64,000 nucleotides of DNA. Origin: Candidatus Poribacteria bacterium. GTDB lineage: Bacteria > Poribacteria > WGA-4E > WGA-3G. Below are positions 14,510 through 64,000 of the stretch, in pieces. The notes under the pieces are model-generated. The model was not told the DNA's origin, did no database searches, and saw nothing but the letters and a program-made list of their open reading frames with translations. The position numbers and the translations under genes are program-made. Location: NCBI GenBank assembly GCA_022821965.1, contig JAJECN010000035.1, forward strand, positions 76,222-140,221, written 5' to 3'. Every line of letters begins with the position of its first letter. Position 1 is the first letter of the stretch.

Positions 14510-14522
14510 CTCCGCCTTCCTC

Positions 14523-26481: not shown

Positions 26482-26601
26482 GATTTTCTTCCTTTGGCTA
26501 TCAGGACAGGAATGTCACTCATCCACGTAAGATGGTTAAAGCAGTTCTCAACCGTTTTGAAAATCTTTAAAAAAGCAGACTATTTTCGCTTTCGGGCAAT
26601 T

Positions 26602-27796: not shown

Positions 27797-28777
27797 TCAT
27801 GACTCACGTGAAACGACATAGTCCGCAAGTTCTGATAAGGCGGTCCGGGCAGGTGTTTCAGGAAAGATTGCCAACGCTGCTTTGGCGCGGTCAGCATAGC
27901 CTTGGGCAACTTTCAGACAGTGCGGTTCGACCCCGTAGCTTTGAAACAGAGATTCAACAAAAGCAATTGCCTCGGTTTCATCCGTATCAGGGTGCAGCAT
28001 TTTTTCAAGCATCTGCTTCTCACTATCATTACAGACTGTTCGCGCATAAATAATAGGAAAGGTAAGTTTCCCTTCGCGGAGGTCACCGAATGCATCTTTC
28101 CCCAACTTATCAGAATCTTCTGTGAAATCAAGCAGATCATCAACGATCTGGAATGCGGTGCCAATCTGCTGTCCATAGACTGTGAGAGCCTCAATCTGTT
28201 GTGCCTCTGTTGTACCGAGATGCGCGCCAAGAGTGCAGGACGCAGCAATCAGTTTACCTGTTTTGAAACTGATAATCTTGAGGTATTCGTCTTCGGAGAT
28301 GTCAAAATCACCGCTCTTATATGCGTGGATAACCTCGCCTTCACACATCGCCTGCGTGGTATCGGCGAGGATCGCCATCGCTGGATCATCAGAACGGCGA
28401 GCCACAAGCATAGAAAGGACCCGTGCATGCAGGTAATCTCCGACGAGGACAGCAACCTTATTACCCCATTTCGTCTGTAACGTTTCACGTCCACGGCGGA
28501 TCGCAGCCTCGTCAAGTACATCGTCATGAACAAGCGATGCAACATGGATGAGTTCAACAACAGCAGCAAGCGTGTGGGCATCGCTCCCTTCATAGTCGCA
28601 GACTTTGGCAGAAAGCACAACGAGAATCGGACGGAGCCGTTTACCACCACCCTCCACAACATGTTGGACCGCCATGTCAACAAAAGTATATTCACTCGCG
28701 GTATGCTCGGTGAGCTTCGCCTCAATAGCACTGAGGTCGTCGGCAATTAATTCAACAATTTGATCAAAGTTGGACAT
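27797..28777 (-). CDS. Trans-polyprenyl diphosphate synthase
   Basis: FARM motif LVHDDVLDEAAIRRGRET and second Asp-rich motif (IVDDLLDF). The N-terminal 12 codons of the ORF-track call lie inside a repeat element, so ATG 28777 is preferred. Confidence 0.75.
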   Translation of the reverse strand: MSNFDQIVELIADDLSAIEAKLTEHTASEYTFVDMAVQHVVEGGGKRLRPILVVLSAKVCDYEGSDAHTLAAVVELIHVASLVHDDVLDEAAIRRGRETLQTKWGNKVAVLVGDYLHARVLSMLVARRSDDPAMAILADTTQAMCEGEVIHAYKSGDFDISEDEYLKIISFKTGKLIAASCTLGAHLGTTEAQQIEALTVYGQQIGTAFQIVDDLLDFTEDSDKLGKDAFGDLREGKLTFPIIYARTVCNDSEKQMLEKMLHPDTDETEAIAFVESLFQSYGVEPHCLKVAQGYADRAKAALAIFPETPARTALSELADYVVSRES

Positions 28778-28789
28778 AATGTAATAGTT

Positions 28790-28921
28790 CTTGGTTTTCA
28801 GAGTCAGAGTCATCGGTTATCAGTTATCGGTTTTCAGTTAAGAGAAATTCTGTAGCGATCACTTATAAAGCAACTGCCATAAAGCGTTAACTGATAACTG
28901 ACAACTGACGACTGACAACTA
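28790..28921. repeat. Palindromic intergenic element built from tandem heptamers (CAGTTAT/CGGTTTT ... ATAACTG/ACAACTG), STRR-like
   Basis: Left arm ggttatcagttatcggttttcagttaag, about 40-bp spacer, right arm gttaactgataactgacaactgacgactgacaact. The right arm ends at the hemL stop codon. Confidence 0.7.
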
Positions 28922-30262
28922 CTAACAGAGATTCGCCAATACCTGTGTTGCGGCTTGAACGGTTGTGTTGATATCCTCGTCAGAATGGACCAAAGAGACA
29001 AATCCTGCTTCAAATTGGGACGGGGCAACATAGACACCACGCTCCACGAGTCCCCAAAAATATTGCTGGTAACGTTCAGTATCCGCCGTGCGCGCGCCAT
29101 CAGCATCCGTGACAGTTTCCGGTGTAAAGTAGAGCATCAACATCGAACCGACTCGACTGTGCCACGCATCAATGCCGTGTTTTTGGGTTGCCTCAGCGAG
29201 GCCCTCCGCGAGGGTAGCGGCACTGCTCTCAAGTTGTTCATAAACCCCCGGTTCAGCGAGTTTCCGCAGCGTCGTTATACCCGCAGTAACGGCTAACGGA
29301 TTGCCAGACAGTGTCCCTGCCTGATAGACATCGCCTTCCGGGGCAACACACCGCATGATGTCCTGATTTCCGCCGTATGCCCCAACAGGTAAACCACCAC
29401 CGATAATCTTCCCTAAACAGGTCATGTCGGGCGTGACGTTATAGTAGGATTGGGCACCGCCATAAGCCACTCGAAAGCCGGTGATGACTTCATCAAAAAT
29501 AAGCACGATGCCGTGCTCTTCAGTGATTTCACGGAGTTGATTGAGGTAACCCTCGTATGGTGGGATGATGCCCATATTGCCCATAATCGGTTCGAGAATG
29601 AGACAGGCAATTTCGTCTGGATTGGCTTCTACCGCTTCGCGGACAGCCTCAGGGTCGTTAAAAGGTACAGTGAGCGTATTACGTGCGAAATCCTCTGGGA
29701 CGCCACCACTATCGGAAAGTCCAAATGTTGCAACACCGGAGCCTGCTTTCGCCAATAGGTAATCCACATGACCGTGATAGCAGCCATCGATTTTGAGGAT
29801 TTTATCGCGACCGGTATACCCGCGAGCGACGCGGATAGCACTCATTGTCGCCTCGGTACCAGAGTTGACGAGTCGCACCTGTTCAATCGAAGGCACCGCG
29901 TTTACAATGGTTTCAGCGAGTTCTGTCTCTCGTGTCGTCGGTGCCCCAAAACTCGTACCGTCCAACGCTGTCGAACGAATAGCCTCTATAACGCTCGGAT
30001 GTGCATGCCCCAAAACCAATGGACCCCATGAAGCAACATAATCAATATATTCGTTTCCATCAATGTCGTATACTTTTGAACCCTCACCGCGGGCAATGAA
30101 ACGGGGATGTCCACCGACTTTGCTGAAGTTTCGGACAGGACTGTTGACCCCACCTGGGATAACTCGTTGTGATTTTTGCCATGCGGCTAAGGATTTACTA
30201 CTCTCCAAAGCGTTTCCTCCAATTTTTCTATGGCTATCGGCTGACAGCCAATTTATAGCCAT
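28922..30262 (-). CDS. hemL: Glutamate-1-semialdehyde 2,1-aminomutase
   Basis: Full-length class III aminotransferase/GSA-AM similarity. PLP-binding Lys region ([18 protein letters not shown]). Confidence 0.9.
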
Positions 30263-31224
30263 TCCACAACGGACTTTGCGAAATAGGTTAAAATCATATC
30301 AGCACCTGCGCGCTTGATACTGTTGAGTACTTCCAAAGCGACCCGTTCCTCATCTACCCAACCGTTCTGCGCCGCTGCTTTAATCATAGCGTATTCACCG
30401 CTGACATTGTAAGCAGCAACAGGGACCTGAAATTCTGTTTTGACTCGATGAATGACATCCAGATAGGAAAGGGCAGGTTTCACCATAAGAACATCCGCGC
30501 CTTCTTGAATATCCAATGCAACCTCGCGCAACGCTTCTTCTGCATTTGCCGGATCCATCTGATAAGAACGTCGGTCACCAAACTGTGGTGTAGATTCCGC
30601 CGCTTCACGAAAAGGTCCGTAAAAGGCGGAAGCGTATTTGGCAGAATACGCCATAATTGGTACGTTTTCATACCCGTTTTCGTCCAACGCCTCGCGAATC
30701 GTCCCGACACGACCGTCCATCATATCCGAAGGCGCGATGACATCGGCACCGGCGCGTGCATGCGATAAACTCTCCTTAACGAGCAACTCCAGTGTCGGAT
30801 CGTTTTGTACTTCACCAGCCTCGATGACACCGCAATGCCCGTGGTCAGTGTATTCACAGAGACAGACATCTGTCATAACAAGCAGATCAGGCACCGCGTC
30901 CTTAACGGCTCGAACCGCCTGCTGAATGATACCGTCGTCGGCGTACGCCTCAGAACCGAGCGCATCTTTCGCCTCTGGAACCCCAAACAAGATTGTGCCG
31001 GGGATTCCGAGTGCGGCGAGTTCTTTCGCGGCGGTGACGAGAGTGTCAACCGAGTATTGGTAACATCCGGGCATTGCTGAAATTTCGGTTGCGGTGTTAT
31101 GTCCATGAACGACGAACATCGGATAGATGAGATCATCAACGGAGAGCGTTGTTTCACGAATGAGCCGCCGCAGGTTCTCATTCGCGCGAAGTCGCCTTGG
31201 ACGATAGATGGGAAAGGTACTCAT
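30253..31224 (-). CDS. hemB: Porphobilinogen synthase (delta-aminolevulinate dehydratase)
   Basis: ALAD family signatures ([10 protein letters not shown] active-site Lys region, Cys-rich metal site [12 protein letters not shown]). 10-nt overlap with hemL. Confidence 0.9.
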
Positions 31225-41061: not shown

Positions 41062-41232
41062 GCTTTTTCTCCTTAAGTTGTGTGGACGTTTCTATAAACA
41101 TTCCGCCCCGCTGGGGCTACTGTATCCGCCTTTTCAACGATTTACAATGAGGATCAAACACATTGAAAAATCGACAAATACTTGAAAACTCAATATGAAA
41201 TGGACAGAAATTGATCAACCTTTAGTCACTTT

Positions 41233-41283
41233 TTAATGATACAATTTAAGGGGCAAAAGGGTGCATAATTTGAAAAAAAAATT
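41233..41283. repeat. About 50-bp direct repeat, copy 1 (ttaatgatacaatttaaggggcaaaagggtgcataatttgaaaaaaaa)
   Basis: About 47/50 identical to copy 2 at 44531..44580. Lies between the stop of the sigma-fusion gene and the start of lipoprotein paralog B. Confidence 0.7.
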
Positions 41284-41349
41284 GGAAAAACTGAATCAGA
41301 ACGGCGATAAAATGAAAATGAAAGGTTTTTCAGGAGCCTTCTGTCAATA

Positions 41350-44322: not shown

Positions 44323-44443
44323 CGGAATTCTCCATGATTATAGTAAAATCTAAATTATCCATACATCAACAAAATGGCGACGTTACAAATCTCCACAGCG
44401 AAGAAACACGGCTGCAGAACTGTTCAGGACTTACGCAGCCTCT

Positions 44444-44472
44444 CGCTGGCGAGGTTTAAAACCTCGCCAGCG
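44444..44472. repeat. GGCGAGGTTT...AAACCTCGCC palindromic hairpin element (family copy)
   Basis: cgctggcgaggtttaaaacctcgccagcg with a 13-bp stem. Related copies at 18439..18459, 45926..45946 and 62972..62992. Confidence 0.55.
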
Positions 44473-44530
44473 GCGTGTAGGAGGCAAGTACTTATCAGAA
44501 AAGTGCGCAAATCTCCCTGTTATTCAATTA

Positions 44531-44580
44531 TTAATGATACAATTTTAAGGGGAAAAGGGTGCATAATTTGAAAAAAATTA
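44531..44580. repeat. About 50-bp direct repeat, copy 2
   Basis: ttaatgatacaattttaaggggaaaagggtgcataatttgaaaaaaatta, about 210 bp upstream of the sigma-fusion start codon. Confidence 0.7.
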
Positions 44581-44807
44581 GATAGAACTTACGCAAATTG
44601 ACCAGAAAAAAGGTATATTTTGCTGAAAAGTTGTTATTTGATTGTATTTAACCCCCTAAATCCCCCTTATCAGGGGGACTTTAAGAGAAAATGCGTAAGT
44701 CCTATTAGAAAAAGAATCTGATACTCATCGGATTTGGGCAAATTCCACTAAGATAAATTGGGCAGGAGTAGTCCTTGGAAGTATGTATTAAATTTAGGAA
44801 CAAAAAA

Positions 44808-48067: not shown

Positions 48068-48126
48068 CCTACAGCAGAACAGCGGTCAGCAAAATAGCTA
48101 TCAGCCATCGGCTGTCAGTCATTAGT
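48068..48126. repeat. Degenerate heptamer-repeat palindromic element (CAGCGGT/CAGCCAT ... CTGTCAG)
   Basis: agcagaacagcggtcagcaaaatagctatcagccatcggctgtcagtcatt, between a lipoprotein gene start and the rtcB stop. Confidence 0.45.
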
Positions 48127-48160
48127 AGTGGCATTTGAGGATAGAAGATAGGTTCTAAGA

Positions 48161-50565: not shown

Positions 50566-50630
50566 TCAGTTTTCGGCAATCAACGATCGGCAGTCAACAG
50601 TCAGAAACCGTCAGCAATCAGTCGTTAGGT
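50566..50630. repeat. Tandem heptamer array (CAGTTTT CGGCAAT CAACGAT CGGCAGT CAACAGT CAGAAAC CGTCAGC AATCAGT)
   Basis: Nine consecutive 7-nt units of consensus C(A/G)G(T/C)(A/T)(A/G)T in an intergenic region. Contains the exact heptamer CAACAGT. Confidence 0.5.
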
Positions 50631-51902: not shown

Positions 51903-51966
51903 TTTTATAGTTATCGGTTATCGGTTGTCAGCAGGAATGGTTATCAGTAGTCGGCTGATAGCCATT
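51903..51966. repeat. Short heptamer-repeat palindromic element (AGTTATCGGTTATCGGTTGTCAGC ... GGCTGATAGCC)
   Basis: Fills the 75-bp gap between the Gfo/Idh/MocA start and the cupin stop. Confidence 0.5.
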
Positions 51967-51967
51967 C

Positions 51968-52411
51968 TTAAGGTTTGTCAGTACATTGCGGTGCTGCGCC
52001 TTCCGGGAGTGGTGGTGCTTCGACACCGGCTTTCGGAAGCGTGCCAGCGAGTTCTTGCTTCCAGTGCGCTACATCCCCCGCGGGTCCATAACAGTAGACC
52101 ATGTGCATCGGTGTGTCGCCAGTATTCGTCAACTGGTGGAAAACCCATGAAGGAATAAACACAGTCTGCCCCGCGGAAAGCACTTGACGCTCTTCACCGA
52201 GACACATTTCACCTTCGCCTTCAACGATAAAATAGATTTCTTCCTGTTCGTGGTTGTGCCACGGCACTTGTCCACCATTTGGCTCTAAAACGACGAACCC
52301 CATACAGAATTCACCTATCTGGATCGGGGATGCACCGCCGACGAGATTTTTGGTTAACCTGCGCGCAGGATACGATCTTCCTTCCATTTCATTTACATCT
52401 GCGATTAACAT
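51968..52411 (-). CDS. Cupin-fold protein (cupin_2)
   Basis: WHNHEQEEIYFIVEGEGEM metal-binding motif. Start moved to ATG 52411 because the GTG-extended N-terminus lies inside a tandem repeat. Confidence 0.6.
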   Translation of the reverse strand: MLIADVNEMEGRSYPARRLTKNLVGGASPIQIGEFCMGFVVLEPNGGQVPWHNHEQEEIYFIVEGEGEMCLGEERQVLSAGQTVFIPSWVFHQLTNTGDTPMHMVYCYGPAGDVAHWKQELAGTLPKAGVEAPPLPEGAAPQCTDKP

Positions 52412-52426
52412 TGTGTGTTTTCCTTT

Positions 52427-52496
52427 CCAATGCTGACGGCACACGGACTGTGCCTGCTACTCCAATGCTGACGGCACACGGACTGTGCCTGCTACT
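52427..52496. repeat. Perfect tandem duplication of a 35-bp unit containing a hairpin (GGCACAcggacTGTGCC)
   Basis: ccaatgctgacggcacacggactgtgcctgctact x2, between the cupin start and the stop of the Uma2 gene at 52502. Confidence 0.7.
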
Positions 52497-52501
52497 TTGC
52501 C

Positions 52502-53101
52502 CTACTCAAAAAGTTTTGCCGCTTGACAAGAAAATCCCTCAACGACATTTTCACCGGTGAGCGTGTCATTCCGCGTAAGTAACGTAATGTCCGTTTCGGA
52601 ACGATAGACCGTCACTGTCTTGGATCTCGGTTCAAGCACCCATACCAATTGTGTGCCTGCATCAAGATAAGCAAATGCTTTTTCCACAACCCGGTGTAAT
52701 GCATCTGTCGGAGAAACCACCTCAACGGCGAGGTCTGGTGGGATAGGAGATGCTTTACTGAGGTCATCAGGTATCCGCACGCTTGCAAGAAATGCGATAT
52801 CTGGCATCAGTACTTGTTCTCCCACCCGAAAGCCTGTATCCGGCATATAGATGCCCCCTAACTGATTTTCTCGGACATACAAACCTAACGGTAAAAACAA
52901 GTTCGTGGTAATATTACCATGTTCCAATGAGGTTGGAGGCACTGGTATTAATTCTCCTTTAATGTATTCATATCCCTCTAAATCGCTTTCGAGGAATTCC
53001 TCCAACGTCATCTTCATAGGTTTAAGAGGGAGTCCTTCTTGTGAGAGTAGGGCATCGGGGCCTCCATCGGCAGGTAGTGCGCCAAATTCTTGTGCGTTCA
53101 T
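52502..53101 (-). CDS. Uma2 (DUF820) family endonuclease-like protein
   Basis: Uma2 blocks: YEYIKGELIPVPPTSLEHG, PDIAFL, PDLAVEVVSPTD. Confidence 0.65.
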   Translation of the reverse strand: MNAQEFGALPADGGPDALLSQEGLPLKPMKMTLEEFLESDLEGYEYIKGELIPVPPTSLEHGNITTNLFLPLGLYVRENQLGGIYMPDTGFRVGEQVLMPDIAFLASVRIPDDLSKASPIPPDLAVEVVSPTDALHRVVEKAFAYLDAGTQLVWVLEPRSKTVTVYRSETDITLLTRNDTLTGENVVEGFSCQAAKLFE

Positions 53102-53200
53102 GTTTTCACCTCGCGATGCGTTTAGGAGAGTTGTAGCCTAATAAGGATACTGCAGGCGGGGTTTCAAACCCCGCCTACAAGCAGTTTGCATAGGTACAGA

Positions 53201-55834
53201 TTAATCTTCTGCCTCAATCACAGCTTGCGCTGCAGCGAGACGCGCAATCGGTACACGGAACGGGGAACACGACACGTAATCGAACCCTAATCCATAGCAG
53301 AACTTCACAGAACTTGGTTCGCCGCCGTGCTCACCACAGATACCGACTTTCAGATCGGGACGCGTCGCCCGTCCTTTCTCAGCACCGATTTGCAAGAGAC
53401 TACCGACACCATCTTGGTCAAGAACTTGGAACGGATCGTATTCAAGCACGCCGTTTCTGACGTAATCATCAAGGAATTTCACTGCGTCGTCACGACTCAT
53501 CCCAAATGTTGTCTGGGTGAGGTCGTTGGTGCCGTAGGAGAAAAACTCGGCTTCGGCAGCGATTTTGTCAGCGGTAAGTGCTGCACGTGGTAACTCAATC
53601 ATTGTACCGACGAGGTATTCAACCCGGGTCCCAGTTTCTTTAAACACGGCTTCCGCTGTGTCAACAACAACTTTGCGTTGCAAAGATAATTCGTTGATAT
53701 GCCCAACAAGCGGAATCATAATCTCTGGCAAAACTGTGATGCCGCGTTTTGAGACATCAACAGCGGCTTCAAAGATCGCACGCGCTTGCATTTCGGTTAT
53801 CTCTGGATAGACGATACCGAGTCTACAACCACGATGTCCAAGCATCGGGTTGAACTCGTGCAATTCCTCAACGCGCTCACGAAGTTTTTGCGGTTCAATA
53901 CCGATTCGCTCGGCAAGCTCAAGGATCTCAGCTTCACTTTTCGGTAAAAACTCATGGAGCGGTGGATCGAGGGTACGGATCGTAACTGGATAGTCTGCCA
54001 TCGCCTCAAAGATACCGATAAAATCTGAACGCTGATGGGGTAACAGTTTGACCAACGCTGCTTCGCGCTCTGCTGTGTCATCGGCGAGAATCATCTCACG
54101 GATAGCATCAATTCCTGTGCCAAAGAACATGTGCTCGGTACGGCAAAGCCCGATACCTTCTGCACCAAATTGTCTGGCATTTTTTGCGTCTTCAGGTGTA
54201 TCCGCATTTGTGCGAACACCTAAGGATCGTACCTCATCTGCCCATTCCATGAGCGTTCCGAATTGTCCACTCAATTCGGGTTGGATCAGTGCCACCTGTC
54301 CATCAAGAACATCACCTGTAGATCCGTTAAGCGTGATATAATCCCCTTCAGTGTAGCGTTTCCCCTCCGCGTAAAATTCCAATGCTTCTTCATTGATAAA
54401 CAGAGCAGAACAGCCCGCGACACAGCATTTTCCCATGCCTCGTGCGACAACAGCGGCGTGGCTTGTCATACCCCCACGTGCAGTGAGTATTCCCTCTGCG
54501 GCATCCATACCACCAATATCCTCTGGTGATGTTTCAGTCCGCACGAGGATAACCTTCTCGCCAGCGGCTGCGTGTTCTTCAGCGTGAAGCGCGGTAAAGA
54601 CAACCTTACCAACAGCTGCACCCGGAGAGGCAGGCAAACCTTGCGCGATAACCTCAACGTTAGCCGCCGGGTCAACGCTCGGGTGCAGCAGTTGATCCAA
54701 GTCGTTAGCAGGAACGCGTGTCAAAGCGGTCGGTTTATCGATTAAACCTTCCTCAACCATTTCAACAGCGATACGAACGGCAGCTTGACCGGTGCGTTTT
54801 CCGTTACGGGTCTGGAGCATGTAGAGTTTGCTATCCTGAATAGTAAACTCCACGTCTTGCATGTCCTTGTAATGTGTCTCAAGTCTCAAGCCGATATCGA
54901 CCAATTCATTATACGCATCAGGCAAAATGTTTCTCAATTCGGCGACCGGAAGGGGTGTGCGGATGCCAGCGACCACGTCTTCGCCCTGTGCGTTAATAAG
55001 GAATTCGCCGTAAAATTGGTTCGCGCCGGTCGAAGGATTACGGGTGAAGGCGACTCCTGATCCGGAGGTTCCGCCCATATTTCCGAACACCATGGCTTGG
55101 ACATTGACAGCGGTGCGTCCGAGTTCTTCGGAAATATCGTTAAGACGACGATAGGTAATAGCTCGCTGGTTGCCAGAGGATTCAAAAACGGCATCCCGTG
55201 CCATGTCTAATTGCTGACGGGGTTCATCAGGGAAATCACTTCCTGTGTGCTGTTTGACGGCACTCTTGAATTCATGGACAAGTGCCGATAAATCGTCGGC
55301 TTCTAATTCGGTATCTAATGTAACACCTTTTGACTTTTTCTTTTCTTCAAGTAAATGCTCAAACTCGTCGTGATCAACGTTGAGGACAACATTTCCGAAC
55401 ATTTGAATGAAGCGGCGGTATGAATCGTAAGCGAAACGTTCATTTTCGGATTTAACGATAAGTCCCTTAATCGCATCGTCATTCAAGCCGAGGTTGAGAA
55501 TCGTGTCCATCATACCTGGCATTGAGACTGCAGCACCAGAACGGACAGAAAGGAGGAGTGGATTTTCGGTATCACCGAATTTTGCGCCCAGGGCGTTTTC
55601 TAATTTTTCCAGATTCTCGTCAATCTGTTCGTCAAGCCCTGCGGGATACTGTTTGTCATTTTCATAGTATAATTTGCAAACTTCAGTGGAGATAGTGAAA
55701 CCCGGCGGAACGGGCACACCAAGGTTGCTCATCTCCGCGAGATTCGCTCCTTTTCCGCCAAGCAGCGTTCGCATTGTGGCATCACCGTCGCTTTCACCGG
55801 CTCCAAAGAAGTATACATACTTTGGTTGTGGCAT
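53201..55834 (-). CDS. ppdK: Pyruvate, phosphate dikinase
   Basis: Full-length PPDK architecture with the phospho-His region ([19 protein letters not shown]). ATG 55834 with GGAGG 6 nt upstream. Confidence 0.9.
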
Positions 55835-55850: not shown

Positions 55851-55958
55851 TATAGTTTTCAGTTATCAGTTATCAGTCGTCGGTTAAGAGATGTTTAGGC
55901 AAGAAAAATCAACATAACTGCCACACACTGAAAACTGACTACTGACAACTGATAACTA
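55851..55958. repeat. Palindromic heptamer-repeat element, same family as 28790..28921
   Basis: Left arm cagttatcagttatcagtcgtcggttaagag, spacer, right arm ctgaaaactgactactgacaactgataact. Fills the whole ppdK-pafA gap and ends 1 nt before the pafA stop. Confidence 0.7.
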
Positions 55959-55959
55959 T

Positions 55960-57318
55960 TCAGATTGAATAAATTGTTCGACTTGCTTCGTCAAATTCAG
56001 GTTTAAATGGATCCGTCGATAGATAAAGGATTTGGTACGGCTCATAAAGTTGGATATAACTCCAATTGACACCGCACAAGACCTTTCCTTCGTTGACTTT
56101 CTTGATAAATTTACCTCGAAACTTGGCTCGCGTGCGTTCAGGTGGGAATTGTTCAGCGTGCCGAATCTGCTCATCTCTGACAATTCGTTCGATCTCCGCA
56201 CGGCTCTCAAGGGTATAGTAGAGGCTTTCCTCCTGACGCACATTGTGGTACTTTAAATCGAGATGCTTCACCTGTGGTGCATCCCACTCAAGTCCACGTT
56301 TCGTCAGATAAGTTTGTAGCCACTTCCACTTAATGACCCAGTCTAACTCCCGGTCCAATTGCATCGGATCGCTTTCCAAGCAGGTAAGGACGTATTCCCA
56401 GCGCGCCATAACTTGGTTTGTTGTTGAATCAGATTCAGCTTGTTCAAGGTACCGCTTGGCACACTCTAAGTACTGCCACTGTAGTTCGACGGCGGAGAGT
56501 CGCCTTCCACTCTGGAGCTCAATCTGGTGTGTACATGTGGTATCATCAGAGATCGCTTGGATGGCTTTGACCGGGTCGCGGAGTGCGAACCTTTGCTGAA
56601 TGAAGTTGTCTTCAATCATACGGAGGATAATACCGGTTGTACCTACCTTCAAAAAAGTCGAAAATTCGGACATATTGGAATCCCCGACGATAACATGTAA
56701 ACGTCTGTACTTCTCACGGTCAGCATGCGGTTCATCGCGTGTGTTGATAATTCCACGTGCTGTCGTTGTGCCGATAGAAATTTCTTCTCGGATGTGCTCA
56801 GCACGTTGCGAGATCGCGTAATACCCGCGATGGCTCGGCTTAATCTTTCCTGCCCCTGCGAAGACCTGGCGAGTGACAAAGAACGGAATCAACTGCCCTG
56901 CCAACTGACGGAAGTCAACATGCCGCTCCATTAGGTAGTTCTCATGGCAGCCATAAGTATTTCCGGGGGTATCTAAGTTATTTTTAAAAATAGAAATCTT
57001 TCCATAGAACCCATCATTGCGCATGCGCCGTTCCGCAGTACTGGCGAGACGCGTAATAATGCGCTCACCTGCTTTATCGTGGGCAACGAGTTCGGCAACA
57101 TCATCACATTCTGGGGTTGCGTATTCTGGATGGCACCCAATGTCTTGGTAAAATCTCGCACCGTTTTCAAGGAAAACATCAGGGTACATTCTCCCAGCAA
57201 CAATTTCACGAAAGAGGTACATCACAACATTCTGAACAGTGAGTGTCTTTCTACGCGGGACATCTGGTGTCCAAATAATTCCGAATTCAGTTTCCAGCCC
57301 ATAAATTCTGCGCTTCAT
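55960..57318 (-). CDS. pafA: Pup--protein ligase PafA
   Basis: MKRRIYGLETEFGI N-terminus and RNGARFYQDIGCHPEYATPEC. Collinear with actinobacterial PafA. 452 aa. Confidence 0.9.
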   Translation of the reverse strand: MKRRIYGLETEFGIIWTPDVPRRKTLTVQNVVMYLFREIVAGRMYPDVFLENGARFYQDIGCHPEYATPECDDVAELVAHDKAGERIITRLASTAERRMRNDGFYGKISIFKNNLDTPGNTYGCHENYLMERHVDFRQLAGQLIPFFVTRQVFAGAGKIKPSHRGYYAISQRAEHIREEISIGTTTARGIINTRDEPHADREKYRRLHVIVGDSNMSEFSTFLKVGTTGIILRMIEDNFIQQRFALRDPVKAIQAISDDTTCTHQIELQSGRRLSAVELQWQYLECAKRYLEQAESDSTTNQVMARWEYVLTCLESDPMQLDRELDWVIKWKWLQTYLTKRGLEWDAPQVKHLDLKYHNVRQEESLYYTLESRAEIERIVRDEQIRHAEQFPPERTRAKFRGKFIKKVNEGKVLCGVNWSYIQLYEPYQILYLSTDPFKPEFDEASRTIYSI

Positions 57319-57382
57319 CGGCTACCCCTTCACAAACATTTCTTCTGTTGAAAGTTTGCCCCTAACTACCAAGTATAACAGA

Positions 57383-58102
57383 TTAGGACAATAAGGTTGT
57401 AACTTCGTCAGTAGAAAGCCGTCGAAATTTTCGCCGAGCGGCGGTTTGTTCAAGACACGCCACTTCTATCGTTTCCGGCGTGATTTCATAATCATCTTCT
57501 GCCTCCGCTTCAACGGTTTGAAAGGCTTCCGTTACAAGTTGAAGTGCCGCTGACATCTCCAACTCATCTGAATAATCTTGTTCGAGAATTTCTGTTATTG
57601 TTGTGGCGCGCCCACCAATAACAGCGTATTTCTCCTCTTCTGAATAGATACCATCAAACGCAATGTGATAAATTTGATTTCTCTGTAATCCAGCACTTGT
57701 TGAAGCATCGGTCGTCCCTATCTCACACACAAGGAGCTCAATCTCTAAGGGTTTCGCGTCCCATGCCTGCGCGACCGCTCCCATGTGTTGTGAATAGAGA
57801 TTCGTTAACCACTTTGCCGTGACATCTTCTCGATAGTAGCGAAAGCCTTTAATCTCGGATTCGCGAATGCCAGCGACACGTAACGCCTCATACTCCGCAA
57901 TCCTACCTGCCGCTGCGAGGGCAATCCTATCGTAAATTTCGGAGACCTTAAAGGTGGTCTTGCGTGGATTCTCGGCAACCATTAGGAGTCCATCTCGATA
58001 CTCTAAGACAACGACCTCTTTCGCCTGGGCGATGCCGCGACGGACGAAATCCTCTTTATCCTGACGAATTTGTTCCGGTGAAACATAATAGGGTGTGGAC
58101 AT
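57383..58102 (-). CDS. prcA: 20S proteasome alpha subunit
   Basis: MSTPYYVSPEQIRQDKEDFVRRGIAQAKEVVVLEYRDGLLMVAENP aligns along its full length with actinobacterial PrcA. Confidence 0.9.
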   Translation of the reverse strand: MSTPYYVSPEQIRQDKEDFVRRGIAQAKEVVVLEYRDGLLMVAENPRKTTFKVSEIYDRIALAAAGRIAEYEALRVAGIRESEIKGFRYYREDVTAKWLTNLYSQHMGAVAQAWDAKPLEIELLVCEIGTTDASTSAGLQRNQIYHIAFDGIYSEEEKYAVIGGRATTITEILEQDYSDELEMSAALQLVTEAFQTVEAEAEDDYEITPETIEVACLEQTAARRKFRRLSTDEVTTLLS

Positions 58103-58111
58103 ATCTGTATT

Positions 58112-58210
58112 TTAGTTCTCGGTTATCAGTTCTCGGTCTTCAGAAAGAAAAACACGTGTGTCCCTGAAAACTATATGTCGATCTCCGTGACAACCAAAGA
58201 CTGAAAACCA
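58112..58210. repeat. Heptamer-repeat element in the prcB-prcA intergenic gap
   Basis: tagttctcggttatcagttctcggtcttcag ... ctgaaaac ... gactgaaaacc. Contains a CACGTG palindrome. Confidence 0.55.
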
Positions 58211-58215
58211 TTCCT

Positions 58216-59010
58216 CTATAGGCGCGATATAAGATCGCGATATAACGCCTCAACAGTCGCCTGAGGAATCTCGGCGACTCCTTCTTCAGTAATAGTGTAA
58301 AGCGTTGGAAAGATTTTTCGGATGAGATCAGGACCGCCCGTCGCGATATCCTCATCAGCGGCATCCCAGAGTGCTTCTGCCACAATCTCCAAGGCATCCT
58401 GACGGGTGATCTCCGGCGTGTGTCGTTTTTTAAGGGTTGTGCGGGCATCCTTACCGCCGGAGCCGATCGCGTAATAGTCGTCTTCCTCATAACGACCACC
58501 GACAGCATCATATTTGAAAATTCTACCACGCTGTCGTTTTAAGTCATAACCGGCAAAGAGGGGCAAGACAATTAAACCCTGCATGGCAAGCCCAAGGTTG
58601 GAGCGCACCAAGTGTGAGAGGAAATTCGCCTGTCCTTCAAGGCTGAGGCTAACCCCTTCTGTCTTTTCGTAAAATTCGACCTCAACTTGAAAGAGTTTTG
58701 CCATTTCAATACAGGGACCAGCAGCACCTGCAACAGCAATCGCTGAGTGCCGATCAACTGGATAAACCTTCTGGATTCGACGCTCGCCGACTTGATAGCC
58801 CTCCGTTGCTTGTCGGTCACCAGCCATGATGACCCCGCCATCGTAAACAACCGCCAAAACGGTTGTGCCTTCGTAAGGACGGAGGGACGACTCTGTTGTA
58901 CGGACACTTGAGGTTGAATCCGGTGAATTGAGCGTCGCCAATAATTCAGGGTGACGACGCTTGAGGATTTGAAAAAAGTTGGAGGTGCCGTAATCATCAA
59001 GTTCAAGCAC
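58216..59010 (-). CDS. prcB: 20S proteasome beta subunit with N-terminal propeptide
   Basis: Propeptide followed by TTVLAVVYDGGVIMAGDRQAT (catalytic Thr1 context). Starts 2 nt after the pup stop. Confidence 0.9.
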   Translation of the reverse strand: MLELDDYGTSNFFQILKRRHPELLATLNSPDSTSSVRTTESSLRPYEGTTVLAVVYDGGVIMAGDRQATEGYQVGERRIQKVYPVDRHSAIAVAGAAGPCIEMAKLFQVEVEFYEKTEGVSLSLEGQANFLSHLVRSNLGLAMQGLIVLPLFAGYDLKRQRGRIFKYDAVGGRYEEDDYYAIGSGGKDARTTLKKRHTPEITRQDALEIVAEALWDAADEDIATGGPDLIRKIFPTLYTITEEGVAEIPQATVEALYRDLISRL

Positions 59011-59012
59011 TC

Positions 59013-59210
59013 CTACTGCCCTCCACGTTGAATATAATTTTCGACAAATTCTTGTGAATCCTCTTCCAAAATTTCATCAATTTCATCAAGGAGCGAGTCC
59101 AAATCTTCAACGAACTCCTCGTCCATTTCGCCAGGTTCAACATTAGGTTGAATCTCTTCGGTTTCCTCAACATCGCGCTTGATGTGTTCCTGTCGTTTTT
59201 CAGTAGACAT
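59013..59210 (-). CDS. pup: Prokaryotic ubiquitin-like protein Pup (C-terminal GGQ)
   Basis: 65 aa, acidic and disordered-like. C-terminal ...YIQRGGQ matches the Pup family. AGGAGA SD 6 nt upstream. Confidence 0.85.
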   Translation of the reverse strand: MSTEKRQEHIKRDVEETEEIQPNVEPGEMDEEFVEDLDSLLDEIDEILEEDSQEFVENYIQRGGQ

Positions 59211-59223
59211 TGTGCTCTCCTTT

Positions 59224-59362
59224 AATAGTTGTGGATTGCCAGTTATCAGTAGTTATCAGTTAATATCTTGTAGCAGTTGTCTTATAGGTAACTACCACAG
59301 CACATCTCTTTAACCGATAACTGAAAGGTTTTTCGCAGAAAAACCGCCCTGACAACTGACGA
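59224..59362. repeat. Palindromic heptamer-repeat element in the dop-pup gap
   Basis: Left arm ccagttatcagtagttatcagttaat. Right arm ccgataactgaaagg ... ctgacaactgacgactat. Embedded 8-bp hairpin GGTTTTTCgcaGAAAAACC. Ends at the dop stop. Confidence 0.7.
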
Positions 59363-60874
59363 CTATTCTGATGCGTTGCCTCGAATCTCCTTAACGAGTT
59401 CCTCTGCTGTACAGTTGTTCAGTAACTCACCTACGATCTTTTGTGTACCGAAGTGAGGGCGATCCATCATAATTTTGTCAAGCCCGCCCGATTTACCGAT
59501 AAAAATCATTGAGTTCCAACTGGCACTATAAATGTGCTTTGGAAACTTTCGTAAACAGGTACCGCGAAAGTATGCCCGGGTGTCCACAGGTGGATAGTGC
59601 ATCGCATGTACAATCTCTTCACGGTCAAGTAAGCGTTTAACATGTCCGTTTTTCAACAATCTAATGTAAAGCCCTTTGTCCGGACGTATATCATGGTACT
59701 GCAGATCAAGCATCTGCACATGCGAGTCATCCCACTTGTATCCGTGTCGTTTGCGGTAGGCATCTATCAACTTCTTCTTGATAACCCAATCTAAGTGTTG
59801 ACTCAACCGCATCGGGTCAATTTCCAAGTTATCAAGAACGTATTGCCATTTTTCAAGGACATCCTCAACGACAGGTGTTCGTTCCTCAGGGGCAAGATGT
59901 TTCTGCGCGAGTTTGAGGTACGCCCGCTGCACTTCTATTGGTGTCCACTCCTGCCCATCTGCAAGTTCTATCTGTTCTCGGCATGAGAGATCTCGCGAGA
60001 TATGTTTTATTGCAGCGACCGGGTCCTTTAAACTGAATTTTTTGCCAATCACACCTTTCTCAATCAACTGGAGCACAATAGAGGTAATACCAGCCTTGAG
60101 ATAGATGCTTAACTCAGACATATTAGAGTCGCCAACGATCACATGCAAGCGTCGATAGAGTTTGTCATCAGCATGCGGTTCATCGCGCGTATTAATCAAT
60201 GGACGATTCACCATAGTGCTGAGTCCTACCTCTTTTTCAAAGAAATCGGCACGCTGGGAGATTTGATAATCCGCTTCGTCGCTCCCGTTCTCCGCACCAA
60301 CTTTTCCGCTCCCGGTGATAATAATACGTGTAACAAGGAAGGGTATCAACCCATCAACGATTGCATCAAACGGCACTTTGCGCGACATGAGGTAGTTTTC
60401 ATGAGAGCCGTAACTATGCCCCTTGTAATCGGTATTGTTTTTATAGATGATAATTTCTTGGTTGTCAAGCAGAAGGCGTTCTGCCGTGATCCTGCTGACT
60501 TCCAATATTAATTCACCCGCTTTTTCGTATAGAAGCAGATCGCGTGCGTTTGCACACTCCGGCGTGCAATACTCAGGGTGCGCATGATCTACGTAGTAAC
60601 GCCCTCCATTTATCAAGATATCGTTAACGGCACTGTTCGTATCTGCCTCAGTAATAGTCGGTTCCGCCTCCGCAAGAAACCCACGAGCGTCTACCAACGG
60701 ACTCTCTTGGTCGTAATCCCACGTGACAGAAGAATTCGCACTTGGCGCATCATCCCGAGAAGTTTTATAGGCATTAACGACCAAGGTAGAAGCAGCAACC
60801 GGATCTTGCTCACGTGCATTTTTGACTGAGATGCCATACTCAGTCTCTGTTCCCATTATTATTGGTATTTCCAT
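59363..60874 (-). CDS. dop: Pup deamidase/depupylase Dop
   Basis: MEIPIIMGTETEYGIS ... INGGRYYVDHAHPEYCTPEC. Dop-type insertion relative to PafA. ORF-track start trimmed to ATG 60874. Confidence 0.85.
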   Translation of the reverse strand: MEIPIIMGTETEYGISVKNAREQDPVAASTLVVNAYKTSRDDAPSANSSVTWDYDQESPLVDARGFLAEAEPTITEADTNSAVNDILINGGRYYVDHAHPEYCTPECANARDLLLYEKAGELILEVSRITAERLLLDNQEIIIYKNNTDYKGHSYGSHENYLMSRKVPFDAIVDGLIPFLVTRIIITGSGKVGAENGSDEADYQISQRADFFEKEVGLSTMVNRPLINTRDEPHADDKLYRRLHVIVGDSNMSELSIYLKAGITSIVLQLIEKGVIGKKFSLKDPVAAIKHISRDLSCREQIELADGQEWTPIEVQRAYLKLAQKHLAPEERTPVVEDVLEKWQYVLDNLEIDPMRLSQHLDWVIKKKLIDAYRKRHGYKWDDSHVQMLDLQYHDIRPDKGLYIRLLKNGHVKRLLDREEIVHAMHYPPVDTRAYFRGTCLRKFPKHIYSASWNSMIFIGKSGGLDKIMMDRPHFGTQKIVGELLNNCTAEELVKEIRGNASE

Positions 60875-60983
60875 CTTTTTATTAGCCATCAGCCATCGGA
60901 AACTATCAGTAAGGAGTGGGTTGTGGAATTCGGGCAATATGCAACCGCCACACGCGCGACTGACCGCTGATTGCTGACCGCCA
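60875..60983. repeat. Variant heptamer-repeat palindromic element (CAGCCAT ... CTGACCG) in the arc-dop gap
   Basis: agccatcagccatcgg ... gactgaccgctgattgctgaccgccatc. Right arm ends at the arc stop codon. Confidence 0.6.
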
Positions 60984-62813
60984 TCAAAGAAATGTACCGC
61001 CCCGGGCCACTCGGACATTCTGTGTCTTTTCTTGTGCAGGTTCATTAATCAAAGCACGGATATTGACAATCTTTTCACCCTTCCTGCCTGAGATTTTCGC
61101 CCAATCATCAGGATTTGTGGTGTTCGGGAGGTCCTCATTTTCGTGGTATTCTTCCCGGATAGCGGCTTTAAGATCGTCAAGACACATCCCTTTGTGGGTC
61201 CCATCAGAAGTAATAAAACGTTTGATCGCCGCTTTCTTCGCACGTGAAACGATGTTTTCGATCATTGCACCGCTGACAAAATCTTTGAAGAAGAGAGTTT
61301 CCCGTTCGCCGCGGGCGTAAGTGACTTCAATAAACCGATTTTCGTCAGTCGTCGCATACATTTCGTTTACAGCCTCATCAATGAAATGCTTCGCAATAGC
61401 TTCAGTATCCCCATTAAACTGCTGAAAAGTGGTTTCAGCGAAGGGGAGATCCGGTGTCAGATATATAGAGAAAATATCTTTAGCACCATCTAAGTTGGGG
61501 CGGTCAATTTTAATTTTGACATCGAGTCTGCCGGGTCTTAAAACAGCAGGATCAAGGAGGTCTTGTCGGTTACTGGCACCAATGACGATGACATCCCGGA
61601 GGTTCTCAACCCCATCAATCTCAGAAAGGAACTGCGGCACAAGCGTTGATTCCATATCCGATGAGATTCCCATGCCTCTGGAGCGGAAGAGGGAATCCAT
61701 TTCATCGAAGAAAATGATAACCGGAAATCCTTCTTTCGATTTATCGCGCGCCTTCTGGAAGACTTCACGGATTTTACGCTCAGTTTCACCAACGTATTTA
61801 TTTAGAAGTTCCGGTCCCTTAATATTAATGAAATACCCGCGCACTTCATCTCTGCCAGTCTCTTTACGGACCCGCTCAGCGATACTACTGGCGACAGCTC
61901 GGGCTATTAAGGTTTTACCACAACCCGGAGGACCGTAGAGGAGAACACCTTTCGGGGGTGAGAGGTTAAATTCCTTATATTCGTTAGGGTAAAGGTATGG
62001 CAGCTCAACGGCATCGCGAATCGCCTCTATCTGGGTATCAAGTCCACCAATGTCAGTATAACCGATATCCGGTACTTCTTCGAGTAACAGATCTTCGACC
62101 TCCCGTTTCGGGAGCTTTTCCATGAGCATGCTGGTCGTATGATTGAGAAGGACGTTATCTCCGGTCTTCAGCGTTTCCTCTTGGAGCGGTTCAGCTATCC
62201 TGACGACACGTTCTTCATCAGTGCGGAGACTTATAATGGCAAGTTCATCGGTAATGCGTTCTTTGATTTTGACAACGTCTCCATGCCGTTCAGGCGTTTT
62301 AACGTCAACGACGTTCATCCCGCTATTGACAATAACCTCCTGCCCAACCTCTATATCTTTCTCTTTGAGTACTGGATCAAGATTGACGCGCCATTTCCTA
62401 CCACTCACATCAATATCAACAGTGCCATCTTCGTTTGACGCGAGGAAGACTCCATAATTATTGGGCGGTGCACTGAGCTGGTCGACCTTTTCCTTGAGGA
62501 TCTCCAGTTTCTCTTTCGCCTCTTGCAGAGTGCTCGTGAGTTTCTTGTTGCGCCGGTGTGCCGTCATCAACTCACGTTGCATTTCATAGAGCCGAGTCTC
62601 AAGGTCCTTGACATATACAGCACCCTGTTGCTGCCGCATGCCTTCCAGTTCACCTTCCAGCATGTCAATGGTTCCTTGGAGCGTACGAATTTGCTGCTCA
62701 TACGAGACAGCGTCGTACGTCTCTTGCGCCTCAAAGGAATCCTTGGAATTTCCTCTTTTGATACCCATACGTGAAATTCTCTCTTTCCAAAACGATTTTT
62801 CCGACCCACCCAC
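60984..62813 (-). CDS. arc: Proteasome-associated AAA+ ATPase ARC/Mpa
   Basis: N-terminal coiled coil, OB domains, Walker A GPPGCGKTLIARAVAS. 609 aa. Sits at the head of the arc-dop-pup-prcBA-pafA array. Confidence 0.9.
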   Translation of the reverse strand: MGGSEKSFWKERISRMGIKRGNSKDSFEAQETYDAVSYEQQIRTLQGTIDMLEGELEGMRQQQGAVYVKDLETRLYEMQRELMTAHRRNKKLTSTLQEAKEKLEILKEKVDQLSAPPNNYGVFLASNEDGTVDIDVSGRKWRVNLDPVLKEKDIEVGQEVIVNSGMNVVDVKTPERHGDVVKIKERITDELAIISLRTDEERVVRIAEPLQEETLKTGDNVLLNHTTSMLMEKLPKREVEDLLLEEVPDIGYTDIGGLDTQIEAIRDAVELPYLYPNEYKEFNLSPPKGVLLYGPPGCGKTLIARAVASSIAERVRKETGRDEVRGYFINIKGPELLNKYVGETERKIREVFQKARDKSKEGFPVIIFFDEMDSLFRSRGMGISSDMESTLVPQFLSEIDGVENLRDVIVIGASNRQDLLDPAVLRPGRLDVKIKIDRPNLDGAKDIFSIYLTPDLPFAETTFQQFNGDTEAIAKHFIDEAVNEMYATTDENRFIEVTYARGERETLFFKDFVSGAMIENIVSRAKKAAIKRFITSDGTHKGMCLDDLKAAIREEYHENEDLPNTTNPDDWAKISGRKGEKIVNIRALINEPAQEKTQNVRVARGGTFL

Positions 62814-62971
62814 ACGGGTAAAATCCGGTACGCGGATAATCGGATTCGATTGGGTTTCAGATCTACACCCAACACTTTTATTTAGAGTATAGCACGCTGA
62901 AAAAATTGTGTCAAGAAAAAGTTGATATTGATATTTCTATTTTTCCCAATGCTTTTAGATGACGTTGTATA

Positions 62972-62992
62972 GCGAGGGATAAAAACCTCGCC
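62972..62992. repeat. GCGAGG-gataaaaa-CCTCGC hairpin (GGCGAGG family), 40 nt past the recA stop
   Basis: Same stem sequence as the copies at 18439, 44444 and 45926. Confidence 0.45.
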
Positions 62993-63032
62993 ATACAAGC
63001 AAACGTAGAAACCTCACCGTCTGCTTTACGTA

Positions 63033-64000
63033 TTACGACACGACATCAACCGTGTCGTGAGCCTCGTCCTCATCGTAGTCGGCATCTTCAGGAATCGCAC
63101 CAGCAATAGCGTCTTGAGCCACACTGAGTGCTTCCCGTATTTTCGCCTCAATTTCCGCTGCGGCATCTGTGTTCTCTTCCAGATATTTCTTGGCATTCGT
63201 TCTGCCTTGACCAATTCGCTCACCGTTGTAGGCAAACCAAGAACCGCTCTTCTGGATAAACTCATTGTCCACAGCAATATCTAAGAGATTTCCTTCTTTA
63301 GAGATGCCCTGTCCGAAGGTAACGTCATATTCTCCCTCCTTGAAAGGAGGAGCTACCTTATTTTTCACCACTTTGAAACGTACACTGCTCCCAAGAATCT
63401 CATTACCATCTTTAATCTGAGTGCCGCGACGGAGTTCCAACCGAATGGAGGCATGGAACTTGAGCGCAAGTCCACCCGGAGTTGTATCTGGGTTACCGAA
63501 CATGATCCCAATTTTCTGCCGAATCTGATTTGTAAAAATAACACACGTTTTTGATTTATTCGTAACACCGGACAACTTCCGCAACGCTTTGGACATCAAG
63601 CGAGGCAGCAAACCAACGTGTGCGTCACCCATTTCACCCTCAATTTCGGCTTGAGGGGTCAAGGCGGCTACAGAGTCAACAACTACCAGATCAATCGCAC
63701 CGCTGCGGATCAGCGTTTCGACAATCTCTAACGCCTGCTCACCGGCATCGGGTTGCGCAATCAACAGGTTTTCCATATTGACCCCAATATTTCGAGCATA
63801 GGAGGTGTCAAGCGCGTGTTCAACATCAACGAACACCGCGGTGCCGCCCAACTTCTGTGCTTCAGCAACAATATGGAGTGCTAATGTGGTTTTTCCAGTG
63901 CCTTCATGTCCGAAAATTTCAATGATCCTGCCGCGCGGGACACCTCCCACACCGAGCGCGAGATCCAGCGAGAGAGAACCCGTTGGGATTGCTTCAACAG
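63033..64000 (-). CDS. recA: Recombinase RecA; N-terminus runs off the right window edge
   Basis: Walker [22 protein letters not shown]1/L2 loop regions. The frame stays open to nt 64000 and encodes ...[18 protein letters not shown]. Confidence 0.9.

Follow-up and report, generated by a model that had tools for sequence, protein, structure and literature searches.

The window analysed here, a 64,000-nt stretch of a Candidatus Poribacteria contig (JAJECN010000035.1), carries a proteasome gene cluster in which several gaps between genes contain palindromic elements made of tandem heptamers. We assigned the genes via Pfam and corrected start codons by reading the sequence (Table 1). In the direction of transcription the cluster reads arc-dop-pup-prcB-prcA-pafA-ppdK, with six junctions of 109, 152, 2, 113, 64 and 125 nt, respectively. 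Inverted arrays of the heptamers CAGTTNT and ANAACTG were found in four of the six (two strong, one moderate, one weak). Each occupied junction has a left array of the CAGTTNT type, a spacer, and a complementary right array of the ANAACTG type. The original prediction for this locus had placed such an element in every gap of the operon and had named four gaps. The wider claim does not hold: pup and prcB are only 2 nt apart, and the prcA-pafA gap contains a remnant, with no array and no significant fold (z -1.1). The four named gaps do carry inverted arrays, with the qualification that the arc-dop copy is a weak variant of the CAGC type and that one arm of the prcB-prcA copy is degenerate.

Table 1. 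Genes, heptamer elements and signals of the window (L numbers denote loci from other genomes)
Feature	Position	Strand	Description
recA fragment	63033-63950	minus	
Promoter-like site	62886-62914	minus	TTGACA-17-TATACT with TG; upstream of arc; kept in L001, L003, L005
arc/mpa	60984-62813	minus	Pfam
E4	60885-60983	minus	arc-dop gap; weak, degenerate CAGC-type variant; adjoins arc stop TGA (60984-60986)
dop	59363-60874	minus	Pfam
E3	59224-59367	minus	dop-pup gap; outer arms 59224-59242 / 59349-59367; inner arms 59240-59263 / 59310-59325
Nested mini-hairpin GGTTTTTCTGCGAAAAACC	59327-59345	minus	within an E3 arm; terminator-like hit in consensus scan
pup	59013-59210	minus	Pfam
prcB	58216-59010	minus	Pfam
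E2	58113-58212	minus	prcB-prcA gap; one good arm, one degenerate
prcA	57383-58102	minus	Pfam
prcA-pafA gap	57319-57382	minus	decayed remnant of small element intact in L125
pafA	55960-57318	minus	Pfam
E1	55851-55959	minus	pafA-ppdK gap; arms 55853-55884 / 55927-55958, 5 units each; spacer 55885-55926
ppdK	53201-55834	minus	Pfam
GC-rich hairpin	53150-53180	minus	3' of ppdK; second palindrome family GGCGAGGTTTnnAACCTCGCC; best terminator-like hairpin
Partial copy	51908-51966	.	single array TAGTTAT CGGTTAT CGGTTGT CAGC, then short separate hairpin 51933-51970
Degenerate one-sided heptamer array	50567-50625	.	CAGTTTT CGGCAAT CAACGAT CGGCAGT CAACAGT ...
Degenerate CAGC/CAGT-type array	48096-48130	.	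AGCTATC AGCCATC GGCTGTC AGTCATT AGTAGTG; read from printed gap
E5	28807-28928	minus	strongest window copy; between hemL (28922-30298) and polyprenyl synthase gene (27797-28816), Pfam identities; arms of 5 and 7 units

Taken as an inverted repeat, the arms of E1 (55852-55884 and 55927-55959) are each 33 nt long and 79% complementary, and its spacer contains the inner box TTAAGAGA / TCTCTTAA. In the mRNA sense E1 begins 1-2 nt past the stop codon of pafA and leaves 8 nt before the AGGAGG Shine-Dalgarno sequence of ppdK. The good arm of E2 (58113-58144) reads TAGTTCT CGGTTAT CAGTTCT CGGTCTT CAGA, and its degenerate partner (58187-58212) pairs with it mostly through G-U on the sense strand. The E4 arms consist of TAGCCAT CAGCCAT CGGAAAC TATCAGT (at about 60884-60910) and GACTGAC CGCTGAT TGCTGAC CGCCATCA (60958-60983). 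The expectation that arms reach the adjacent stop codons was borne out. The dop TAG (59363-59365) lies within the terminal TAGT unit of E3, the hemL TAG (28922-28924) lies inside the E5 array, the arc TGA falls in or adjoins the first E4 unit, and the pafA TGA is separated from the E1 arm by the 1-2 nt mentioned above. Right arms in the window are in forward orientation and end 9-25 nt before the next start codon; a Shine-Dalgarno sequence follows the arm in two of four cases.

Folding of the sense strand, proposed earlier as a check on these elements, gave -39 kcal/mol for E1 (z -3.9), -31.1 for E2 (z -2.1; antisense -21.1), -50.7 for E3 (z -6.0) and -45.4 for E5 (z -5.4). The fold of E4 (-35.1, z only -1.2) is not significant alone.

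Mini-hairpins of 19-23 nt and of the form GGTTTTTC-nnnn-GAAAAACC, such as the one within E3, are also nested in heptamer arrays of other, independent Poribacteria loci (L103, L105, L108, L125 and L152). The mini-hairpin resembles an inverted pair with just one unit of this heptamer on each side. It is reminiscent of the very small dispersed repeats that reportedly occur in Nostoc.

The arrays stand out clearly from the background. In a sliding test, a period-7 self-match of at least 15/21 was found at 64 window positions, versus 0-3 positions at periods 5, 6, 8, 9 and 10; Tandem Repeats Finder (TRF) detected the arrays as well. The sequence TAACTGANAACTGA, with at most one mismatch, occurs 6 times in the window (0.13 expected), and exact copies of TAACTGATAACTGA stand at 28888-28901 and 55859-55872. 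The paired pattern AGTTNTCRGTTNTCRGT-N35-65-ACYGANAACYG has 7 matches, versus 0 in 100 shuffles. All window arrays of at least 4 units (arrays have 3-7 units) sit in gaps between long open reading frames (ORFs), and the three 3-unit hits inside ORFs equal the shuffle expectation (0-5). The window has 6-10 copies of tandem heptanucleotide arrays in its 64 kb, and more copies were found in every related locus. Both the over-representation of the arrays and the complementarity of the arms beyond chance, on which the original prediction depended, are upheld by these tests, the latter without unit-by-unit covariation (see below). They support a repeat family rather than a set of operon-specific signals.

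Chance low-complexity sequence or an assembly artefact, which the insignificant fold of the arc-dop copy taken alone might suggest, has virtually no probability and was rejected for the family. The shuffle controls, an identical dop-pup sequence in an independent sample (L126) and related copies in many independent assemblies all speak against it. No Rfam family matched the window at gathering score or at relaxed E-values; the only hits were chance microRNA-like ones (E 0.25-3.5).

The elements most likely lie within one polycistronic RNA. The site upstream of arc is the sole strong promoter-like site in the region and is likely the promoter of the whole arc-to-ppdK unit; a scan for promoter-like sites found no credible promoter in the gaps between the proteasome genes. 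The hairpin 3' of ppdK likely marks the end of the transcription unit. This single, strong and conserved promoter, the terminator-like hairpin after ppdK and the lack of U-tracts in between argue for co-transcription.

The palindrome family to which the ppdK hairpin belongs (GGCGAGGTTTnnAACCTCGCC, with a GC-rich 8-bp stem) is distinct from the heptamer elements. Its other sites in the window are at ~18470, ~44450 and ~62975-63000, and it also occurs in gaps of L001, L003 and L127. It occupies operon ends, namely the one behind ppdK, the space separating recA from arc, and a convergent gap, and the family looks like either repetitive extragenic palindromic (REP) elements or terminators.

Elsewhere in the window, a perfect 35-nt tandem duplication (TCCAATGCTGACGGCACACGGACTGTGCCTGCTAC, 2 copies) stands at 52426-52496, at the junction of a cupin gene and a Uma2 gene. 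A minus-strand ORF of 576 aa (18552-20282) contains a 66-nt (22-residue) tandem repeat in 22.5 copies with 75% identity; its product is probably leucine-rich-repeat-like, of the eukaryote-like kind common in sponge symbionts. A block of ~55 nt (ttaatgatacaatttaaggggNaaaagggtgcataatttgaaaaaaa) lies upstream of two neighbouring minus-strand genes (gaps 41092-41349 and 44338-44807) and could be a shared promoter or leader.

Presence among relatives and dispersed copies

Homologues of Dop with 55-90% identity carry the name Candidatus Poribacteria. We compared the syntenic operon across nine other assemblies, among them L125, which is 96-98% identical to the window in coding DNA (~97%). This comparison of orthologous gaps, suggested along with the original prediction, revealed that the presence of the elements varies by lineage. 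E1 has orthologous copies in L125, L127, L003 and L001, with a common spacer segment still recognisable and very different arms. E2 is present in the window, L125 and L003 only, and is absent from L001, L005 and L127-L130. E3 is restricted to the lineage of the window: the gap is identical in L126, L125 has ~3 extra heptamers in one arm, and L001, L003, L005 and L127-L130 have no copy. At the gap of E4 there is a clearer copy in L127 and a trace in L005. Between L125 and the window, the pafA-ppdK arms have strongly diverged, and L125 has an intact small prcA-pafA element where the window has the remnant (alignment A1).

Distant Poribacteria, whose Dop is 73-79% identical, have short junctions: 13-48 nt for prcB-prcA, -11 to 26 nt for prcA-pafA and 59-94 nt for dop-pup. 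No heptamer arrays were found in their operon gaps. Since the elements are patchy among relatives and the distant operons are compact and free of arrays, the elements are recent gains that have expanded ancestrally short junctions. They are lineage-specific and change much faster than the flanking genes.

One distant relative, L128, carries a different GC-rich hairpin repeat (GCCGGTAGGCGCGCTTTCCAAACGCGCCTAC, at 11667-11757 and 14389-14525 of that locus), twice after ppdK and once before it. These hairpins occupy places where the window lineage carries heptamer elements or the GGCGAGG hairpin.

The spacers had been described as unique; comparison with other Poribacteria copies does not bear this out. 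The inner arm ends share the boxes CAGTTAAGAG(G) ... (C)CTCTTAACTG, and a subset of copies has a second inner stem, TTGTGGC ... GCCACAA, so that both these boxes and TGTGGC ... GCCACA are common property. Between the arms, the foldback core has the shared boxes TTAAGAGG ... CCTCTTAA. Elements L105 and L108, from different genomes, are 81-87% identical over 90 nt including the spacer, and their flanks are unrelated by blastn and tblastx. The pafA-ppdK spacer type also occurs at another locus, L074. The shared boxes, the near-identical copies elsewhere and the recurrent mini-hairpin indicate a dispersed family of common descent rather than independent local repeats. As for the orientation of the inner boxes relative to transcription, CTCTT was found on the 3' side in 13/16 copies and AAGAG on the 5' side in 8/16 (exclusively so in 7 versus 2), a difference that is not significant; the inner TGTGG stem is itself palindromic.

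Distribution and anatomy across phyla

We scanned 185,579 species genomes for the paired pattern and found paired elements in at least 119 stretches in about 12 phyla, where 119 is a lower bound. By our estimate, ~0.5 matches are expected by chance (~41 bits of pattern information versus 1.2e12 positions). Among the matches listed, ~70 are from Acidobacteriota, 12 from Poribacteria, 11 from Bacteroidota, 7 from Planctomycetota, 5 from Chloroflexota, 4 each from Verrucomicrobiota and Alphaproteobacteria and 2 from Cyanobacteria. Calditrichia, Armatimonadota, Altiarchaeota and Bifidobacteriaceae are represented there by single metagenome-assembled genomes (MAGs); phyla were assigned by record title, and single MAG contigs may be mis-binned. 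A viral collection added 46 stretches; the contigs that carry them include ones of 70% G+C, and several copies share a contig in some cases. The unit varies between lineages at position 6 (Poribacteria have TAT, others TCT, TGT or TTT), and CAGT/ACTG is constant. Carriers include the cultured strains Brevifollis gellanilyticus NBRC 108608, Flavobacterium collinsii CECT 7796, Hymenobacter sp. CRA2 and Nostoc PCC 7120, so the function of the repeats is open to direct experiment in tractable organisms.

Further copies surround the fetched loci. In their flanks, a sample biased towards element-carrying genomes, 49/162 further heptamer arrays are of the CRGT type and 28 of the CAGC/AGCT type, with 11% expected per random unit. 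Period 7 outweighs periods 5 and 8-12 in these loci. With 25 extra paired elements against 49 extra CRGT arrays, essentially all of the latter appear to be paired.

The anatomy was recorded for 148 paired elements. Arms have mostly 4-6 units (up to 22), and the median spacer is 25 nt. The elements lie in 92 co-directional, 13 convergent and 11 divergent gaps, a distribution that resembles that of ordinary gaps, with no enrichment. Where the gap is co-directional, ~60% of left arms begin at -3 to +7 nt relative to the upstream stop codon, and ~55% of right arms leave 0-25 nt before the start codon. The left arm starts exactly at -3, with the first core beginning at the stop codon, in 13 cases; that a TAG stop doubles as the first TAGT core was verified visually for individual copies only, such as those at dop and hemL. 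Many copies from Acidobacteriota have their final ACTG directly next to the ATG and no Shine-Dalgarno sequence.

In other phyla (L038, L069, L078, L104, L025, L036, L008 and L029), elements stand between atpA and atpG, between atpD and atpC, before rpmA, rplP and dnaX, and right after tRNA genes; these neighbours were identified by reading first codons, not by search. A 7-kb locus of a Chloroflexia MAG (L034) has many heptamer arrays, with AAGAATT 10 times, AAATTCG, AAATTCC, AAAATCT and AACCACT. This variety indicates that some genomes carry several unrelated heptamer families.

Possible origin and function

We favour, with moderate confidence, the view that the elements are a dispersed, hypervariable and fast-evolving foldback repeat of the kind known as short tandemly repeated repetitive (STRR) sequences or TAACTGA repeats, tolerated between cistrons and at most modulatory on the mRNA. 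Replication slippage would lengthen and shorten the arms in steps of 7 nt. Whole elements would be copied to new sites, and selection would spare only copies placed exactly in the space from a stop codon to the following ribosome-binding site. As part of the arc-to-ppdK transcript, the elements may fold into stems of 25-35 bp interrupted at about every seventh position. Such folding would bring the upstream stop codon back near the downstream start region, at a short distance as in the relatives, and the insertion of 100-150 nt could thereby be largely neutral for translational coupling. Effects on the operon, whether as a barrier to 3'-exonucleases, as an RNase site or by masking the start until the upstream ribosome arrives, would be secondary and modulatory rather than ancestral regulation. 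There would be little consequence for the proteasome operon, to which the elements are recent additions outside the conserved regulation.

Several observations weigh against this view. L003 and L004, whose contigs are 99.8% identical, show no change in array length and one 6-nt indel in coding sequence, so turnover is fast but not extreme. The pafA-ppdK copy has been retained in five genomes. The signature of a mobile element (a transposase, a target-site duplication) was not found, and copying to new sites is deduced from two cross-genome comparisons. At the element ends, no consistent TA or other signal of a target-site duplication or fixed terminus was seen (the outermost unit is TAGT at 20% of stop-side and 13% of start-side ends). 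There was no transposase among 20 window proteins scanned, and no search was aimed at the REP-associated tyrosine transposase (RAYT). In each of the five window copies the sense strand gives the better fold, by 2-13 kcal/mol and with more G-U pairs, a difference that is confounded by the G/T-rich strand. In other phyla, copies stand in operons that are essential and highly expressed, such as those of atp and of ribosomal proteins, as would also be expected of a useful element. Finally, the same CAGT core is found in genomes of 45% to 70% G+C, which argues for a sequence-specific partner, either a mobility enzyme or a regulator.

Some of these points would suit selected intercistronic RNA structures that set the relative expression of cistrons, a possible though rather unlikely alternative. 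The structures might shield the upstream mRNA from 3'-exonucleases, offer or avoid sites for RNase III or RNase E, or impose strict translational coupling by keeping the following start region in a stem until the upstream ribosome, on terminating, opens it. The base of the hairpin spans the distance between the stop codon and a point shortly ahead of the ribosome-binding site or start, the Acidobacteriota arrangement of ACTG abutting ATG is common, and the pafA-ppdK copy has persisted; like roles have been proposed for STRR hairpins (PMC2670836) and for TAACTGA repeats (PMC4679880). The sense fold is also favoured in 57/92 co-directional cases across phyla. However, among Poribacteria the bias amounts to 16/27 copies (16 to 11, p = 0.44), and in the window it coincides with the G-/T-rich strand; sense G-U enrichment was therefore rejected as proof of selection at the RNA level. 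Nor do the arms covary at variable positions (58.2% within the same element versus 58.5 +/- 0.8% between arms of different elements sharing the dominant unit, our control, and 55.8% in shifted register). There is a stem because each arm is an array of the same unit. With 5-6 of 7 positions constant, the lack of covariation does not exclude a useful hairpin, but it removes the usual evidence for one. Moreover, three of the four operon copies are missing from relatives with the same operon, and convergent gaps, divergent gaps and the regions behind tRNA genes have elements as well.

Conservation of the unit rather than of the pairing is what one would expect if the arrays bound a protein specific for the heptamer, each 7-nt unit taking up one of its subunits or domains, either on single-stranded RNA or on DNA, and with the inverted layout incidental or serving to load both strands. 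The core of 4-5 nt (CAGT/ACTG) is indeed invariant and kept across the range of G+C given above, while positions 5-6 drift (TAT, TGT, TCT, TTT), and HutP provides a precedent in binding UAG triplets at 7-nt spacing. In Geobacter metallireducens, paired 5x MTYCTGA arrays are annotated as putative global regulator sites (PMC2700814), and MacGregor proposed binders of the S1, Csp or CsrA type for the TAACTGA repeats (PMC4679880). Against this, no candidate protein was found, and the sites, rather than being in promoters, fill the space from a stop codon to the following start within operons and also come after tRNA genes; we consider such arrays doubtful as an explanation. Very improbable, in turn, are intrinsic and possibly bidirectional terminators that split the genes into transcription units. 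Long hairpins at gene ends would fit them, as would the T-run after the right arm and the A-run before the left arm in many Acidobacteriota copies. But none of the four operon copies has a U-tract behind it, for which reason we rejected them as terminators, and the consensus scan flags no whole element, only the nested mini-hairpin. The promoter arrangement, with one strong conserved site before arc and none credible in the gaps, and the overlapping or 13-nt junctions at the same places in relatives also argue against termination there.

Beyond our preferred view of a tolerated dispersed repeat, the CAGT-core heptamer foldback might constitute one pan-bacterial system in which a sequence-specific protein mobilises the element or controls operon mRNAs. 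We regard this as unlikely. The partner could be a nuclease or transposase, or a ring-shaped binder of RNA or single-stranded DNA with one subunit per 7 nt. If true, this would explain the recurrence of one core between 45% and 70% G+C in at least 12 phyla plus their viruses. It would also unite the cyanobacterial STRRs, the TAACTGA repeats of Beggiatoaceae and the copies in Acidobacteriota, Poribacteria, Planctomycetota and Bacteroidota under a common mechanism.

Genes of the Uma2 family (PF05685, PD-(D/E)XK nuclease-like) lie next to or inside element-bearing operons, at 52502-53101 and 25660-26514 of the window and at 14526-15500 of L128. The gene after ppdK is missing from L003 and L005 and is represented by two in L128; the family may be a lead to a partner protein. 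Uma2 is expanded in cyanobacteria.

Relation to known repeat systems

The heptamer TAACTGA has been described as an abundant intergenic direct repeat in marine Beggiatoaceae, 15 Cyanobacteria and 5 Bacteroidetes (MacGregor 2015, PMC4679880). In the BOGUAY genome there are 169 direct-repeat sets, most of them forward and just upstream of start codons, and one set is inverted (1/170) (PMC4679880). Our elements share with these repeats the identical heptamer, arrays of 2-7 units split by related heptamers and an almost wholly intergenic location. The forward array upstream of the next start, the 7-nt-step indels between close strains and the patchy phyletic spread are also alike. In contrast, 169 of the 170 BOGUAY sets have one side only, and the majority stop 1 nt short of the start codon, as against the 9-25 nt of the window; in Poribacteria and in the scanned genomes the arrays form inverted pairs around a spacer. 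The hosts reported there did not include Poribacteria, Acidobacteriota, Planctomycetota, Verrucomicrobiota or Chloroflexota.

The STRR sequences of heterocystous cyanobacteria, to which the elements were likened at the outset, are a fitting comparison. In Nostoc PCC 7120, csR1.1 (ttgtcagttgtcagttgtca, 44 copies per genome) and csR1.3 (ccactgactactgac) occur in one intergenic region, and each was scored as "no hairpin" by the authors (PMC2408588). We find that csR1.1, (CAGTTGT)n, and csR1.3, (ACTGAC..), are one unit family in both orientations; the CAGTTAT unit differs from csR1.1 at position 6 only. Seven-base STRR hairpins between hupS and hupL are a precedent, with suggested roles in transcript stability or translational coupling (PMC2670836). 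Common to both systems are seven-base tandem units, an intergenic location, many copies per genome and possible hairpins between co-transcribed genes. The differences are the host, Candidatus Poribacteria rather than a heterocystous cyanobacterium, the dominant unit CAGTTAT and the shared inner boxes of the Poribacteria copies. The classical STRR1 (CCCCAGT) and STRR3 (CAACAGT) carry the CAGT core as well. The comparison with STRRs yields no mechanism.

Sites termed "global regulator sites, class 3" in Geobacter metallireducens are paired sets of five heptamers with the consensus MTYCTGA, annotated without experiment (PMC2700814). They resemble our elements in their five tandem heptamers, mostly as opposite-strand pairs, in their many copies and in the CTGA part, and their unit differs at three positions.

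The elements are also comparable to the REP sequences, bacterial interspersed mosaic elements (BIMEs) and REP doublets forming hairpins (REPINs) of Proteobacteria, being short, palindromic, extragenic and dispersed, with inverted doublets around a spacer and co-transcription at gene ends. REP elements occur in hundreds of copies and stabilise upstream mRNA, and REPINs are tied to a RAYT (Y1) transposase gene. Their arms, however, are single imperfect palindromes of 20-40 nt and of fixed length, unlike the tandem arrays of variable unit number found here. With MITEs (miniature transposable elements with inverted repeats) such as the Correia elements of Neisseria, our elements have in common a non-coding length of 100-150 bp, inverted ends, intergenic location, co-transcribed hairpins, presence that varies between strains and near-identical copies at unrelated loci (L105/L108 and the L074 spacer). 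MITEs differ in having fixed terminal inverted repeats and a target-site duplication (TA in Correia), where we see array ends of variable length and no duplication. In the foldback (FB) transposons of eukaryotes, long inverted arms likewise consist of short tandem repeats; the arms vary in length, and the central loop varies or is missing. They are far larger and built of other units, and we draw an architectural analogy only, with no homology implied.

Integron attC sites were rejected, because there are no RYYYAAC ... GTTRRRY core sites and the flanking genes form a conserved syntenic operon, not cassettes. CRISPR and the promoter spacers of phase variation were rejected on anatomy.

Our literature search found no paper that mentions TAACTGA- or STRR-type repeats in Poribacteria, which appears to be a new host phylum. 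The inverted foldback pair as a rule, with shared inner boxes, and the wide spread of the family over phyla and into viral contigs also appear to be new. STRRs have gone unexplained since 1990 and TAACTGA repeats since 2015, and both have passed for oddities confined to one or a few lineages. The CAGT-core inverted pair between genes is now seen to be widespread, and it is abundant in Acidobacteriota.

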